Shown: positions 19,303-28,888 of the stretch, piece by piece | How the letters are laid out: every line of letters begins with the position of its first letter | Numbering within the stretch: position 1 is the first letter of the stretch | Assembly (NCBI GenBank): GCA_022508735.1 | Contig: JAFLUQ010000003.1 | Coordinates: forward strand, 10,287 to 42,286 | Origin: Oscillospiraceae bacterium | GTDB lineage: Bacteria > Bacillota > Clostridia > UMGS1883 | DNA: 32,000 nt | Direction: 5' to 3' | The notes under the pieces: model-generated | Told to the model about the DNA's origin: nothing | What the model saw: only the letters and a program-made list of their open reading frames with translations | The model's database searches: none | Program-made: the position numbers and the translations under genes

Positions 19303-20835
19303 ATGGATAAGCAGACAGTTTTAGTTATTGACTTCGGCGGCCAGTATAATCAGCTGATCGCCCGCCGTGTGCGCGAGCACAACGTATACTGCGAGGTGCT
19401 GGCCTATACGCACACTATCGACGAAATAAAAGCCAAAAATCCTGTGGGCATAATCTTCACAGGCGGCCCAAACAGTGTGTACGGCGAGGACGCTCCCCGG
19501 GTTCCGGCTGAGTTGTTCGAGCTCGGAGTTCCGATACTCGGCATATGCTACGGCGCCCAGCTCATGAGCTATGTTCTCGGCGGCGAGGTAAAAAGCGCCG
19601 ACACACGCGAGTACGGCAAGATCGAGGTAGACCTCTCCCCCAGCCTTATATTTGAAGGCATCGAGGGCAAGGGCGTTTGCTGGATGAGCCATACAGACTA
19701 TATTAGCGCCGTTCCCGAGGGCTTTAAAATCACTGCAACCAGCGCCACCTGCCCGGTGGCCGCCTACGAAAACGCCGAAAAAAAGCTCTACGGAGTGCAG
19801 TTCCACCCCGAGGTGAATCACACCCTGTTCGGCGAAAGAATGTTAAGGAACTTCCTTTATAATGTCTGCGGCTGCAAGGGCGACTGGGAAATGGGTGACT
19901 ACGCTCGCCGCTATATCGACATGGCAAAAGAAAAGTACGCCGGCAAGAAGGTGCTCTGCGCCCTGAGCGGCGGCGTTGACAGCTCCGTGGCAGCAGTGCT
20001 CCTTTCCCGCGCGGTAGGTAAAAACCTGACCTGTATCTTTGTTGACCACGGCCTGCTCCGTAAGAACGAGGGCGACGAGGTCGAGCATATTTTCACCAAG
20101 CAGTTTGATATAAATCTCATCCGCGTGAACTGTGAAGACAGATTTCTCACTAAGCTCGCGGGAGTTACCGAGCCCGAAAAAAAGCGCCGCATAATCGGCG
20201 AGGAGTTCATTCGCGTATTTGAAGACGAAGCCAATAAGATCGGCGAGGTGGACTATCTTGTGCAGGGTACGATCTATCCCGACGTGGTCGAGAGCGGCAG
20301 CGGCAAGAGCGCCACAATAAAGAGCCACCATAACGTTGGCGCGCTGCCCGACGTTATCAAGTTCAAAGAGATCGTCGAGCCCCTTCGCATGCTGTTTAAG
20401 GACGAGGTCCGTAAGCTCGGCATCGCCCTCGGCATACCTGATAATCTCGTATGGCGCCAGCCCTTCCCCGGTCCCGGTCTTGCCGTGCGCGTGATCGGCG
20501 AAATAACAAAAGAGAGGTTAGACATCCTTAAAGAGGCCGACGCTATCTTCCGCGAGGAGATCAGGCTCTGCGGCCTGGACAGAAGCATAAACCAGTACTT
20601 CGCTGTCATCACCGATATGCGCAGCGTTGGCGTCATGGGCGACGAGCGGACCTACGATTATACTATAGCCCTCCGCGCCGTTACCACTACCGACTTTATG
20701 ACCGCCGACTGGGCGCGCATACCTTACGATGTTCTTGAAAGAGCCAGCAACCGCATAGTAAACGAGGTCAAGCATGTCAACCGCATAGTGTATGACATCA
20801 CCAGTAAACCCCCAGCAACTATTGAGTGGGAGTGA
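19303..20835 (+). CDS. guaA: GMP synthase (glutamine-hydrolysing)
   Basis: 510 aa. GATase-1 head ([31 protein letters not shown]), the ATP-PPase SGGVDSSV motif and the canonical C-terminal ...KPPATIEWE. Confidence 0.97.
20824..20833 (+). repeat. left copy of the att core (attL)
   Basis: GAGTGGGAGT lies inside the last guaA codons (GAG TGG GAG TGA). Confidence 0.65.
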
Positions 20836-20871
20836 CGATATAACGTTCAGAAAAGCTTGTTTTTACTGATA

Positions 20872-20917
20872 TTTCAGCATGTTATGGTTCTCTTGTGATG
20901 CTGATATGATGCTGAAA
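20872..20917 (+). terminator. element-borne hairpin that may act as a surrogate guaA terminator
   Basis: TTTCAGCAT can pair with either of two ATGCTGA(AA) copies (20898..20904 or 20909..20917). It is followed by CCTCCATTTT. The loop is long and the T-run weak. Confidence 0.3.
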
Positions 20918-20993
20918 CCTCCATTTTCACCAAAATAAGCATCTATTTTCACTATAAAAAGTTGGTTATAACCCATTGTATACAAAATATAAT

Positions 20994-21044
20994 AAAGCGC
21001 ACCTTTACGATTTTCTTTGATGAAAATCTGTATAGGTGCGCTTT
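20994..21044 (-). terminator. terminator downstream of the integrase gene
   Basis: AAAGCGCACCT / AGGTGCGCTTT 11-bp stem enclosing an inner GATTTTC/GAAAATC hairpin. The minus-strand read is followed by a T-rich tract. Confidence 0.6.
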
Positions 21045-21136
21045 ATATTATATATGCCGATATGACCTTGTAAAACCTTATATTATCTCGTTAATATGTA
21101 TACTCAAAGTTAATCTGGCCCCTAAAAACTGGCTTA

Positions 21137-21170
21137 TTTTAGGGGAAAATTCCCCCGCATTTTGGGGAAT
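21137..21170 (+). repeat. 33-34-nt direct repeat, copy a (candidate arm-type integrase site)
   Basis: TTTTAGGGGAAAATTCCCCCGCATTTTGGGGAAT. It contains the internal dyad GGGGAAAATTCCCC. Confidence 0.6.
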
Positions 21171-21219
21171 GCATACAATATACTGTACCTAAAACCTATT
21201 TTCTATCAGTATACAGGTG

Positions 21220-21252
21220 TTTTAGGGGAAATTTGTCCCGCACTTTGGGGAT
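21220..21252 (+). repeat. 33-34-nt direct repeat, copy b
   Basis: TTTTAGGGGAAATTTGTCCCGCACTTTGGGGAT. It starts 83 nt after copy a starts and ends 10 nt from the int stop codon. Confidence 0.6.
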
Positions 21253-21261
21253 TTCTTCCCT

Positions 21262-22314
21262 TTATATCAACGTATCAAGTGTATTTGCAAGCTCAGTTTG
21301 TTTGTGCGGGTATAGGTGCGAGTACGTGTTTAGAGTTGTCTCGATATTTTCATGCCCCAGCCTTTCAGCTATCAACAAAGGCGAAAACCCAAGCTCTATA
21401 AGCAGAGAGGCATGAGAGTGCCGAAGGTCGTGAACTCGAATGCGTTTTACGCCTGAGATTTTACAGCCCCGGTCCATTTCGTGATGAAGATAATACTTCG
21501 TGACAGTGAAAAGCCTTGTGCTCGGGTTCTTATCAAAAAGAGTCTGCATATACGTCTCAATCTCTTTACAGAGAAAATTCGGTATAGCTATTATTCTGAT
21601 ACTTTTCTTAGTCTTTGGCTCTGTGATTACATCTTGCTTTTCAATACGCTGATATGATTTATTGACAGACAGTTCTTTACTGGTGAGGTCTATATCGGCT
21701 CGGGTCAGCGCAAGCAATTCACCGGCTCTCAGTCCGCACCAATATAAAATTTGATAGGCCAGATGGGCCATAGGTTTGTCTTCAATGGCATTTGAGAACT
21801 TCAGATATTCTTCGCGAGTCCAAAATTGCATTTCGTCTGCGCTTTTACGACCCATAGAGCCGGCTTTATGACATGGATTTTCTCTCAGACCGTAATACTT
21901 GACTGCATAATTAAGTATTGCACAGAGCTGATTATTGATCGATTTCAGGTAGGTTTCTGAATAATCCTGGCCAATCAGTTTATTTTGCCATTGTCTTACC
22001 GTTGTCGGCTTAATATCGCCGATTTTTATTTTGCCGAAATACGGTAATATTTTTGTGTCGATCATGTGCTTCTTGTTGTTCATTGTAGACTGTCTCAGCC
22101 TGTTTTTCATATCATCTATGTAGAGCTCTACCAGGCCGGCGAACGTCATTTGCGGATTAGATTGAAGCTTATCCAAAAAGGCGCGCTCATATTCTTTAGC
22201 GTCTTTCTGTTTAGTAAAGCCTCTTTTTGTCTTACGCTTCTTCAGCCCCTGCCAATCTACATAGTAAAAACAACAATACCACGTGCCTCTTTCTTCATCT
22301 TTATAAATCGGCAT
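21262..22314 (-). CDS. int: site-specific tyrosine recombinase, Tn916-Int-like (N-terminal arm-binding domain plus catalytic domain)
   Basis: N-terminus MPIYKDEERGTWYCCFYYVDWQGLKKRKTKRGF (AP2-like integrase DNA-binding fold). RAGELLAL, HDLRHSHASLLIE and GHENIETTLNTYSHLY carry the R...HxxR...Y catalytic residues. Confidence 0.9.
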   Translation of the reverse strand: MPIYKDEERGTWYCCFYYVDWQGLKKRKTKRGFTKQKDAKEYERAFLDKLQSNPQMTFAGLVELYIDDMKNRLRQSTMNNKKHMIDTKILPYFGKIKIGDIKPTTVRQWQNKLIGQDYSETYLKSINNQLCAILNYAVKYYGLRENPCHKAGSMGRKSADEMQFWTREEYLKFSNAIEDKPMAHLAYQILYWCGLRAGELLALTRADIDLTSKELSVNKSYQRIEKQDVITEPKTKKSIRIIAIPNFLCKEIETYMQTLFDKNPSTRLFTVTKYYLHHEMDRGCKISGVKRIRVHDLRHSHASLLIELGFSPLLIAERLGHENIETTLNTYSHLYPHKQTELANTLDTLI

Positions 22315-22330
22315 AATCTACAACCCCATT

Positions 22331-28006: not shown

Positions 28007-28092
28007 TAATTTTAAAGAAGTTTTAGAAAAAATAGGATAGCGGCTTATAATTACCTCCAAATCTACCTGTATCGAGTTTTCGTTTTTGAGCT

Positions 28093-28127
28093 TAAAACTT
28101 ACCTACTTCAAAACTAAAGCTCGATAT
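28093..28127 (+). repeat. imperfect direct repeat R1
   Basis: TAAAACTTACCTACTTCAAAACTAAAGCTCGATAT. It shares TAAAAC, ACTTCAAAAC and CTCGATAT blocks with R2, which lies 588 nt to the right. Confidence 0.55.
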
Positions 28128-28174
28128 AGGAGGTTCTGGAAGCAATAGAGGCTGAATACATTCAGCTAAATAAT

Positions 28175-28201
28175 AAAAAGCGCTCCGAATTTACGGAGCG
28201 C
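28175..28201 (-). terminator. intrinsic terminator of the minus-strand non-coding unit
   Basis: GCGCTCCG / CGGAGCGC stem with a 6-nt loop, followed immediately by TTTTT when read on the minus strand. Confidence 0.7.
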
Positions 28202-28440
28202 AGGTTAGGTTTTTGCCGAATTTACGGAGTGCATACTGTGAGTTGCCCCACAGCAGGGCGATAATTCACCTCATCATACTTATCAAACCCAAATGTGACT
28301 GCATTTTGAACAGTCGAGGCTGTGTTCATAATATTGTCTAAACCTGCTATATGAGTTATAGGAGTCTCAAGAGCGGTTATAAGGGAATTGCCAATATTAC
28401 TGCTGATATTATCTGTTATGGACATCCAAAGTTGTTACTT

Positions 28441-28587
28441 CGTCAATTCTGACGCGGCCGCATCATTTCTGTGCGGCTCTCATAGTTGCCTATGAGTTCA
28501 GACTGTGCCTTCAACCTTCTGCAGAAGGTCGCTCCGTGTCCAGTCGTTACACCTTCCCTTTAACGGGCTTGGCTCGGCATTGCCTAT
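28441..28587 (-). ncRNA. candidate structured RNA (multi-hairpin leader) of unknown class
   Basis: It lies downstream of a TTGCAA-17-TATAAT promoter. Hairpins: 28441..28454; 28457..28477; 28479..28496 (GCAA tetraloop on the minus strand); 28514..28529 nested inside the GACTG/CAGTC stem 28501..28545; and 28556..28567. Confidence 0.35.
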
Positions 28588-28593
28588 GGACTT

Positions 28594-28622
28594 ATTATAT
28601 CATTAATTTTTAGACATTGCAA
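28594..28622 (-). promoter_or_regulatory. promoter of the minus-strand non-coding unit
   Basis: Minus strand: TTGCAA (28617..28622), 17 nt, TATAAT (28594..28599) preceded by TGA. Confidence 0.6.
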
Positions 28623-28680
28623 GTGAAATTTGAAAAAATATGTACTTTTGAGAAATCAAGACGTTCATTTATGTCTGGAC

Positions 28681-28716
28681 TAAAACCTATCCAACTTCAA
28701 AACGGCTACTCGATAT
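28681..28716 (+). repeat. imperfect direct repeat R2
   Basis: TAAAACCTATCCAACTTCAAAACGGCTACTCGATAT. The string CTAAAACCTAT (28680..28690) also occurs at 21189..21199 near the integrase end. Confidence 0.55.
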
Positions 28717-28878
28717 GAGCGATATTAAAACAGCTCAAACATACCCGCCGATACCATGATGCCGAAATGACGCCGATACCCATTTAATATATAAACCAAG
28801 TACAAAAATACATACAATATGTATAATAGAAATAAAACGATAACCACAAAATACGATAGGAATAAAAATCCAATAGCA

Positions 28879-28888
28879 GAGTGGGAGT
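28879..28888 (+). repeat. right copy of the att core (attR)
   Basis: GAGTGGGAGT followed by AA, which gives GAG TGG GAG TAA (EWE-stop), the presumed original end of guaA. Confidence 0.65.

Follow-up and report, generated by a model that had tools for sequence, protein, structure and literature searches.

In a gut Oscillospiraceae bacterium of the Clostridia (GenBank assembly GCA_022508735.1, contig JAFLUQ010000003.1, positions 10,287 to 42,286), an insertion of about 8.1 kb occupies the 3' end of guaA, the gene for GMP synthase, and carries an integrase gene together with a set of transcriptional regulators. Islands with an integrase, an excisionase and attachment (att) sites and no recognizable transfer genes are common and are usually dismissed as debris; the question raised by this locus is whether the insertion is debris of this kind or a mobile element in its own right. 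We analyzed the whole 32,000-nt stretch, hereafter the window, which is 100% identical to the ENA metagenome contig ERZ27293329 k141_623701; the extension of that contig beyond the window is locus L004. The insertion (20834-28888) is designated E1, a second element starting at 28889 is designated E2, and related loci used for comparison bear L-numbers. The evidence presented below makes it probable that E1 is an intact, reduced, helper-dependent and satellite-like integrated element with a cargo of transcription-control genes. We accordingly file it as a variant within the small integrative islands that resemble satellites or integrative and mobilizable elements (IMEs), with a sigma-factor-dominated cargo as its defining trait.

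To delimit E1 we relied on its repeats and on related loci. The guaA gene ends in ATT GAG TGG GAG TGA, and the recombination core lies within these last codons. The 10-mer GAGTGGGAGT occurs exactly twice in the window (20824-20833 and 28879-28888), against 0.06 expected occurrences and none of 100 shuffled sequences reaching two, so that the exact repeat proposed in a preliminary description of this DNA to bound an element in the guaA 3' end is upheld. The second copy reads GAGTGGGAGTAA and precedes a hairpin with a 17-bp stem and a T-run at 28898-28935. An E1-free configuration is provided by L109, a locus from a sister sample with a 97% identical guaA, which reads ...ATCGAGTGGGAATAAATAAATCAGCCCCGGGAATGGCG..., its junction being guaA-GAGTGGGAATAA-ATAAATCAGCCCCGGGAATGGCG...TGAGTACAAATTGAGTACA. 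Here guaA is fused straight to the sequence found 3' of the second core copy in the window, and the 8.1 kb between the two copies thus represents a precise insertion, with both junctions placed at the 10-bp core. This is essentially the empty site that the preliminary description had named as a check, although L109 lacks E1 but carries an E2-type arm and hence is not element-free. An exact look-up of the guaA protein returned no record. A metagenome scan with the last 28 nt of guaA yielded no same-species empty site and only unrelated, mostly marine bacteria, because this end is conserved at the nucleotide level across phyla. These 28 nt (20806-20833, AAACCCCCAGCAACTATTGAGTGGGAGT) are identical in unrelated environmental, mostly aquatic, metagenome bacteria (L088-L099), and such conservation may explain the popularity of the guaA end as an integration target.

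Comparison among relatives refined the crossover point. In L010, L011 and L019 synonymous codons of guaA differ, whereas from the stop codon on the sequences are identical, comprising a hairpin followed by paired arm repeats. Identity beyond the stop despite differing guaA codons places the crossover inside GAGTGGGA(A/G)T, and these elements supply their own terminator. L100 and L103, which encode the same guaA protein, part right after GAGTGGGAAT. In the window the right-hand hairpin is followed by the arm repeats of E2, whereas no hairpin of this kind is present at the guaA sites of the closest species (L104 and L108, guaA 92-94% identical), both of them probably empty. The earlier proposal that this hairpin is the displaced guaA terminator was therefore not supported; it is the left arm of E2, displaced by E1, and a candidate native guaA terminator at most.

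The recombination system of E1 looks intact, comprising integrase, excisionase, both sets of arm sites and both cores (Table 1). As first described, a tyrosine integrase gene lies at the guaA-proximal end, ~430 bp from guaA, and its catalytic residues R196, H295xxR298, H321 and Y331 are invariant among relatives. Its assignment to the Tn916 type was not borne out: the protein has Arm-DNA-bind_4 as its N-terminal domain, the accompanying Xis is ICEBs1-like, and Pfam and NCBIfam detected neither of the Tn916-specific domains (Integrase_DNA, Tn916 Xis) in E1 Int or Xis. The excisionase candidate matches the NCBIfam ICEBs1 Xis model NF047858 at 5.6e-12 (under the family cut-off) and phrog_989 at 1.5e-20, and is 72-85% identical to its counterpart in related guaA elements. 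L006, L007, L010 and L017 show the paired P' motif equally far from their cores. On the other side, TGATGCTGTTTTGATGCTGA in L007 is as distant from the right core as the P repeat pair is in E1, so that both arms of L007 are laid out as in E1.

To place this integrase among its relatives, we fetched 80 loci encoding integrases 51-73% identical to that of E1. In most of them guaA is convergent with the integrase gene, ~100 bp beyond the integrase stop. The closest integrases (73%) belong to elements resembling phage-inducible chromosomal islands (PICIs) with a phrog_256 primase-helicase and a phrog_51 small terminase (TerS) (L010 and L013), as in Neglectibacter timonensis. TerS is also present in L009, VapE or D5 primases and a scaffold protein occur in L018, L032 and L057, and L042, L052 and L100 carry a relaxase. 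The integrase family is guaA-specific, large in the Clostridia and common to PICI-like satellites and relaxase-bearing IMEs.

The remaining content of E1 was examined by running Pfam, NCBIfam, PHROGs and PADLOC on all open reading frames (ORFs) of at least 44 aa. The inventory first proposed was largely confirmed, with two sigma-70-family proteins of 218 and 263 aa (sigma218 and sigma263), a protein with sigma region 4 only, an XRE-family protein (XRE144), two small helix-turn-helix (HTH) proteins and two ribbon-helix-helix (RHH)-like proteins of 66 and 64 aa (rhh66 and rhh64); the 65-aa protein counted among the HTH proteins is the Xis homologue. Among the small ORFs, the 89-aa protein (p89) is a homologue of phage RecE/YqaJ-type exonucleases in their C-terminal domain, matching Listeria phage A118 gp47 and Marinitoga viruses, and the 44-aa ORF (p44) is conserved, whereas the ORF at 28222-28425 has no homologues and was rejected as probably not a gene. 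The description of the payload as regulators only was therefore nearly right, but did not account for Xis, for p89 with its resemblance to the C-terminus of phage RecE, or for an array of iterons and a ribozyme resembling a group I intron. Its central negative finding stands. No replication, relaxase, packaging, capsid or resistance gene was detected in E1 by these searches, no coupling protein, NikA-like gene or conjugation module by family searches, and no remnant of a primase-helicase, TerS or relaxase by tblastn with the proteins of the relatives. The largest unassigned ORF of E1 has 89 aa, too few for a Rep, primase or relaxase of conventional type to be encoded.

Given this inventory, E1 could also be a decayed module for regulation and recombination, once part of a larger PICI-like satellite, prophage or Tn916-like integrative and conjugative element (ICE) and now stranded, at best cis-mobilizable along with its neighbors. 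The lack of replication, packaging and transfer genes is what such decay would leave, and the closest integrases reside in satellites that do have a primase-helicase and TerS. Among elements of the E1 type described below, L110 still has TerS and L086 the C-terminal remnant of a helicase; the neighboring E2 shows that decay occurs at this locus, and E1 gives no sign of recent spread. What speaks against decay is the recurrence of the same reduced set. Clustering of ORFs revealed a shared order, which runs from an outward-reading RHH gene to an XRE gene in reverse orientation, a small ORF, xis, [HTH, 226-aa protein], the region-4 protein, a sigma factor of ~262 aa, [TerS or p89], a 41-44-aa ORF, a sigma factor of ~215 aa and int. 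This order is found in E1, L007, L110, L017, L086/L087 and L117, with protein identities of only 30-80% and with ORFs that are intact and often overlapping, and the elements, at least five divergent members, measure 6.6-8 kb. L007, from a rabbit-gut metagenome-assembled genome, spans 6.6 kb between cores at guaA; L110 lies at the gene for the ATP-pyrophosphatase subunit of GuaA and has a small terminase (Terminase_2, phrog_51) between its two sigma genes; L117 is a partial locus that ends just past its ~260-aa sigma gene.

Individual genes confirm these correspondences. In E1 the start of sigma218 overlaps the stop of p44, one of several places where genes overlap translationally, and the sigma factor has same-position orthologues in L007, L110 and L086. 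XRE144 is 53% identical to same-position orthologues in L017 and L110, and rhh64 shares 56-60% identity with the genes at the end of L007 and L110. The unit at 26622-27259 has a promoter-like site at 27326-27354 and a homologue adjoining int in L086. A protein identical to sigma263 is recorded at NCBI as 'sigma-70 family RNA polymerase sigma factor [Oscillospiraceae bacterium]'. The p89 protein is 78% identical to the L086 copy, and rhh66 shares 48% identity with the RHH gene that adjoins p89 in L086 and L117. The rhh66-p89 pair (23254-23945) is far nearer to L086 (p89, 78% at both the amino acid and nucleotide level) than other parts of E1 are to any relative, which suggests a recent module exchange and would account for the two RHH genes of E1 as against one in its relatives.

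Further evidence against decay comes from phage genomes. L086 and L087, IMG/VR contigs also compared as L123 and L125, hold the module within an Xkd/PBSX-like myophage (XkdN-like chaperone, YqbQ), where it separates the tail sheath gene from the tail tube gene. We fetched 80 contigs with the same tube protein in order to compare occupied and empty configurations. Among the related phage contigs, 75 had both genes detected, and in every one of these the gap between sheath and tube genes is 17-25 nt, near-identical phages (97-100%) included, and the 7.87-kb element is present only in L123 and L125, the empty relatives being L124 and L126-L202. Flanked by TGAGCGT, it lies within the last codons of the sheath gene, for which it brings a replacement C-terminus and a hairpin, and it carries neither primase nor TerS. 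As judged from these contigs, the occupied and empty pair is proof that an E1-type unit moves as such. A second, unrelated phage represented by the Logan contigs L117/L118 contains an E1-like module (two RHH genes, p89, xis, region-4 proteins and a sigma factor) directly after a sheath-like gene and a 41-aa ORF resembling a truncated tube N-terminus; with respect to the late operon, it is turned the other way round from the module of L086.

A regulatory signature is also maintained across the family. Upstream of p89 and of the p44-sigma218-int unit E1 has two copies of a bipartite promoter-like motif, GTTCGCCC...ACGTTATAAT and GTTTTGCGCGC...ACGCTATAAT, with the consensus GTTTYGYCGGC-N17-19-ACGYTATAAT; beyond these two copies, ACGYTATAAT does not occur in the window. 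The motif recurs in L007 (8705-8743, p89 gene), in L110 (6151-6189, unit of 41-aa ORF, sigma and int) and three times in L086 (9916, the first copy spanning 9916-9954, 13729 and 14567), always upstream of p89 or of the sigma-int unit; it is shared by all E1-type elements and is conserved at the nucleotide level where the proteins of the elements are only 30-45% identical. The conserved gene order, att arm sites and promoter motif in at least five divergent elements argue that E1 is not a product of random decay. Together with the intact arm sets and cores, the clean insertion into a phage of an element without primase or TerS, the lack of Tn916-specific Int or Xis domains and the failure of sigma218 to match any of 72,556 plasmid records, they render the decayed-module explanation unlikely, including the Tn916-like version offered in the preliminary description. 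The satellite-like reading put forward alongside it gains support from the relatives.

The layout of E1 suggests how such an element could operate. A perfect TTGACA-17-TATAAT promoter faces XRE144 and, 40 nt off on the other strand, TTTACA-17-TATAAT faces the xis operon, an arrangement that is predicted to be a lysogeny-type switch. In the mechanism that we propose, the XRE repressor would keep the divergent promoter shut, and its relief would let the minus-strand operon yield Xis, the region-4 protein and sigma263, one or more of which would activate the GTTTYGYC...ACGYTATAAT promoters before the 89-aa gene and p44-sigma218-int. Sigma218 and Int would then be made and E1 would excise, leaving the predicted repaired junction guaA-GAGTGGGAGTAAACAAATCAGCCCCGG. 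As the last tier, sigma218 would redirect RNA polymerase to late promoters of a helper phage or of the element, its targets probably lying in the helper phage, and E1 would be packaged by that phage or carried inside its genome. Because it has no replication or packaging gene, E1 would depend on a helper phage. A bolder formulation, which we put forward tentatively and consider unlikely, is that E1-type elements are an undescribed class of minimal phage parasite or passenger, devoid of genes for replication and packaging. A private cascade, running from the repressor to the region-4 protein and a first sigma factor, on to the conserved promoters of the element and finally to a second sigma factor and the integrase, would commandeer the host RNA polymerase and the late genes of a helper myophage. 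The elements would spread via conserved chromosomal 3' gene ends (guaA) or straight into helper genomes (sheath gene), and the ribozyme next to the att arm would act as a functional RNA payload or switch.

Several observations weigh against E1 being a functional satellite-like element. E1 has neither TerS nor any recognizable pac, cos or origin of transfer (oriT), which leaves its transfer route unproven, and no helper phage was identified. The predicted attP junction (...AATCCAATAGCA-GAGTGGGAGT-GACGATATAACG...) was not found in IMG/VR; no excised circle, same-strain empty attB or packaged copy was found, and the exact E1 integrase is present only in the contigs of this strain. The region-4 protein, the marker of the family, forms only four representative clusters in 1.84 billion proteins and thus a very small family. 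L086 keeps a 111-aa C-terminal remnant of a primase-helicase, so that gene loss occurs in the family and E1 could be a non-mobile end product. The assignment of sigma factors to promoters, finally, is our inference. Neither sigma263 nor sigma218, each used alone as the query, gave a match in scans of viral collections; small virome scaffolds labeled 'Bacteriophage sp.' that match sigma263 or p89 are only distantly related and proved uninformative.

The nature of the cargo also invites the explanation that E1 is a regulatory island retained by the host, reprogramming host or prophage transcription, for instance in phage immunity or interference, with mobility being incidental. Satellites and islands often carry anti-phage functions, the cargo of E1 consists almost entirely of transcription factors, and a candidate defense gene of family PDC-S27 lies nearby, beyond a third core copy. 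However, PADLOC returned no match for any E1 protein, the int-xis-att system is complete, and the presence of the family at different targets argues for active mobility; the probability of this explanation is accordingly low.

Non-coding features bear on a further explanation, that E1 is an IME moving by conjugation by means of an unrecognized oriT and of a relaxase supplied by a helper, either an ICE or an IME. Promoter-like sites number 32 versus 19.2 ± 4.8 in shuffled sequences and terminator-like sites 18 versus 6.6 ± 2.6, lending moderate support to the initial characterization of the non-coding DNA as promoter- and hairpin-rich. Two elements of this DNA could hold an oriT. The iteron array adjoins the terminal RHH gene, includes a hairpin at 27562-27587 (z = -5.9) and has the same layout in L007 (5446-5643) and L110 (1099-1373); candidate roles are those of an origin, of an operator bound by RHH proteins and of a centromere-like site. 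An apparent inversion of 27448-27592 relative to L007 is explained by the symmetric layout of the iterons. The long hairpin at 28056-28140, which lies past the terminal RHH gene and ahead of the ribozyme unit, was considered as a putative oriT or single-strand origin. Beyond this hairpin and the iterons, the conjugative explanation can draw on the guaA 3' end being a known site of IMEs (PMC5357655, PMC5704250), on relaxase-bearing IMEs with related integrases at the same site, the intact relatives of E2 included, and on IMEs with only an oriT being discussed as likely (PMC5704250). Against this, E1 has no relaxase, coupling protein or NikA-like gene, and the content of its relatives is phage-like, with TerS, a domain resembling RecE, sigma factors of PHROG families and a case of insertion into the tail operon of a phage, which makes conjugative transfer improbable.

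Comparison with known systems supports the classification of E1 as a satellite-like island while setting it apart from described members. SaPIbov1, one of the PICIs of the Staphylococcus aureus pathogenicity island (SaPI) type, also integrates in the guaA 3' end. E1 resembles these islands in being small, with int at one end and site-specific insertion in the guaA 3' end, in having a repressor gene divergent from an operon that starts with xis, which is the switch layout of such islands, and in its iterons around an AT-rich stretch and its lack of structural or lysis genes; its nearest integrases occur in elements with primase-helicase and TerS, and the E1-type L110 has TerS itself. E1 differs from them in its smaller size (8.1 kb), in lacking primase, Rep, TerS and capsid-remodeling genes, so that neither the replication nor the packaging functions of these islands are represented, in the position of int as the last gene of the inducible operon, not co-oriented with the repressor gene, and in a cargo of two sigma-70-family factors and a region-4 protein.

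In the regulatory module of Tn916, orf9 opposes orf7-orf8-xis-int. By layout only, E1 is similar, with an HTH repressor-like gene opposing an operon in which sigma- and region-4-like proteins precede the xis/int functions and int comes last, and circularized E1 could be transcribed across the joint. Unlike Tn916, E1 lacks the Integrase_DNA and Tn916-Xis domains and the conjugation module (FtsK-like coupling protein, relaxase and VirB4), is strictly guaA-specific with arm-type sites, and encodes full-length sigma factors (regions 2 and 4) that match phage families (phrog_351). A repressor combined with a phage-encoded sigma factor for late genes is known from the xre/xpf control of PBSX-type prophages; E1 resembles this arrangement, again by layout, in its XRE repressor and element-encoded sigma-70-family factor, and one E1-type relative lies inside a PBSX/Xkd-like tail operon, but E1 has no late structural genes of its own. 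We found no literature on sigma-factor-bearing satellites in Clostridia.

The right end of E1 contains a group I intron-like ribozyme in a position that is unusual for bacterial and phage group I introns (PMC3984707; Rfam RF00028). The P3-P9 core aligns over the full model, and the full-length match to RF00028 (28733..28479) scores 31.7 bits, which is below the gathering score of 50, with E-values of 3.9e-5 to 4.7e-6; at gathering thresholds Rfam gave no match in the window. The 5' splice site is predicted after 28724 and the start of the 3' exon at 28478. Unannotated gaps in phage genes match the core at 85-93% identity, an example being the gap that interrupts the major capsid gene of Bacillus phage SerPounce. 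In contrast to known introns, the E1 copy lies outside any tRNA, rRNA or recognizable protein gene, in the non-coding right end of an integrative element: its ligated exons yield neither a tRNA nor a continuous ORF, and searches with the ORF downstream found no homologues. No group I match was obtained in L006, L007, L017 or L110. The minimum-free-energy fold of the region is no better than that of shuffled sequences, a measure that is uninformative for a pseudoknotted ribozyme.

The recurrence of a reduced, sigma-dominated gene set with conserved cis sites in divergent Clostridia, together with the occupied and empty pair inside a phage tail operon, points to a functional, unclassified lifestyle intermediate between those of satellites and of IMEs. 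A sigma cascade of this kind, if real, would offer a simple system for the takeover of host RNA polymerase by a mobile element, and satellite and IME finders keyed to primase, terminase or relaxase would miss elements of the E1 type.

Table 1. Coordinates of guaA, E1 and E2 features in the 32,000-nt window
Feature	Position	Strand	Basis or remark
guaA (GMP synthase), target gene	19303..20835	+	Pfam GATase + GMP_synt_C
attL core copy GAGTGGGAGT, left E1 junction	20824..20833	+	exact 10-mer search
P' arm-type repeat pair TGATGCTGATATGATGCTGA, presumed integrase arm-domain sites	20896..20915	+	begins 62 nt right of left core
Tyrosine integrase, 350 aa, guaA-3'-end-specific family	21262..22314	-	Pfam Phage_integrase, Phage_int_SAM_3, Arm-DNA-bind_4
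sigma218, sigma-70-family protein, 218 aa (regions 2 + 4), last regulator before int	22331..22987	-	TIGR02937 6e-16, phrog_351 8e-20
p44, conserved 44-aa ORF, first of p44-sigma-int unit	22984..23118	-	56% identical to same-position 41-aa ORF of L110
Bipartite promoter-like motif GTTCGCCC...ACGTTATAAT, upstream of p44-sigma218-int	23151..23188	-	conserved in family
p89, 89 aa, homologue of phage RecE/YqaJ-type exonuclease C-terminal domain	23254..23523	-	phrog_434 1.5e-14, phrog_1956
Second promoter-like motif copy GTTTTGCGCGC...ACGCTATAAT, upstream of 89-aa gene	23571..23609	-	conserved in family
rhh66, RHH-like 66-aa protein, divergent from 89-aa gene	23745..23945	+	phrog_13890
sigma263, sigma-70-family protein, 263 aa (regions 2 + 4 + C-terminal extension)	23997..24788	-	TIGR02937 4e-15, phrog_351 1e-24
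200-aa protein, C-terminal sigma region-4 HTH only; E1-type family marker	24785..25387	-	Sigma70_r4 2.6e-4, phrog_36 5e-8
Excisionase candidate, 65 aa, first gene of minus-strand operon	25374..25571	-	NCBIfam NF047858, phrog_989
Divergent promoter pair, switch region	25616..25715	both strands	consensus promoters
XRE144, XRE-family repressor candidate, 144 aa, divergent from xis operon	25727..26161	+	HTH_3 1.3e-16
Three-gene unit: 68-aa ORF + two paralogous Cro/CI-type HTH proteins (64, 74 aa)	26622..27259	-	HTH_26, HTH_3
Iteron array, CAGCAG-N3-CAGCAG pairs: two direct, one inverted	27438..27645	.	flank AT-rich stretch
rhh64, RHH-like 64-aa protein, far end, reads outward	27766..27960	+	phrog_13890, phrog_582 (Arc-like)
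Imperfect inverted repeat, ~85-nt hairpin	28056..28140	.	z = -2.7 as single-stranded DNA
Group I intron-like ribozyme, non-coding context beside att arm sites	28479..28733	-	Rfam RF00028
P arm-type repeat pair TGATGCCGAAATGACGCCGA	28757..28776	+	ends 103 nt left of right-hand core
Second core copy = attR of E1 + attL of E2	28879..28888	+	exact 10-mer search
E2, decayed, rearranged integrative mobilizable element, second integrase class	28889..32000, ~2.4 kb beyond window end	.
E2 left arm: terminator-like hairpin (28898-28935) + arm repeats TGAGTGCA-N3-TGAGTACA (28949-28967)	28898..28967	+
E2 248-aa ORF	29132..29878		28% GC, no homologous family
E2 LamG ORF	30063..30641
E2 LRR_5/Big_4 ORF	30693..31559
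E2 truncated integrase, 100 aa	31688..31990	-	72-81% identical to second class

The DNA to the right of E1 belongs to a second element. GC content drops from ~0.52 upstream of guaA to ~0.40 after it and stays low through the window end and further; its low value past 28888 was the first sign of foreign DNA extending beyond E1. Directly 3' of the right-hand hairpin stand arm repeats with the consensus TGAGTRCA-N3-TGAGTACA, and the same repeats (TGAGTACA twice) are found ~110 nt to the left of a third exact core copy, located at L004 7545-7554 (minus strand), ~5.5 kb past the second copy and ~2.4 kb past position 32000. At this third copy the sequence is again GAGTGGGAGTAA, and the hairpin behind it shares the GCCCCGGAAATGG stem, which defines the locus as a tandem array guaA-E1-E2. 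The hairpin type (CCCCGGAAA stem) and the repeats also occur 3' of guaA in L109, L042, L048, L068 and L085, of which the last four carry a second class of integrase.

Where the second integrase class occurs in an intact element, that element is an ordinary IME encoding NikA, an ATPase (AAA_25) and a relaxase (Mob_Pre or MobA) besides its cargo. In E2 the integrase is truncated, the HTH-xis-int block is inverted relative to the intact relatives L042 and L100, and fragments of surface-protein genes and low-GC ORFs have been inserted; these features identify it as a decayed IME, the older element beside which E1 inserted. The LamG and LRR_5/Big_4 ORFs look like pieces of one surface-protein gene, and neither Pfam nor PADLOC assigned a function to the 447-aa and 248-aa ORFs of E2. 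IMEs at the guaA 3' end and their tandem accretion with decayed, cis-mobilizable elements (CIMEs) have been described (PMC5357655, PMC5704250). Like E1, the streptococcal and other guaA IMEs are tyrosine-integrase elements in the guaA 3' end, with a size of ~10 kb, and accretion fits the E1-E2 array with its three core copies. E2, which retains att sites, stands in tandem and has lost recombination and transfer genes, fits a CIME or decayed IME, whereas E1 does not: the presence of its integrase sets it apart from CIMEs, and the lack of both relaxase and coupling protein from IMEs. The locus clearly exemplifies how elements accrete in tandem at the ultra-conserved guaA 3' end, with a group I ribozyme in an unusual non-genic position.

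Other arrays and neighboring genes were noted. In a related species (L100, positions 11139 and 19408; guaA 92% identical), an intact relaxase-bearing IME at guaA is followed by a further core copy and different arm repeats, forming another tandem array at the same site. In L008, L011, L019, L028, L043, L060, L067, L075, L078, L079 and L110, the gene adjacent to the integrase is a partial guaA match of ~300 aa, called in L110 as a separate 333-aa gene for the ATP-pyrophosphatase half, and L043 has a full guaA 7 kb away from its partial copy, which suggests another array. Beyond the third core of the E1-E2 locus, L004 5204-6604 encodes an ATPase_2/DUF234 protein assigned by PADLOC to the candidate defense family PDC-S27 (2e-62); GC content continues at ~0.40 there, and more foreign DNA may follow the array. 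Upstream of guaA, two surface-protein genes (1329 and 1048 aa, with SdrD_B and CarboxypepD_reg repeats) have in common an 836-nt segment with 84% identity (13785-14616 and 17106-17936).

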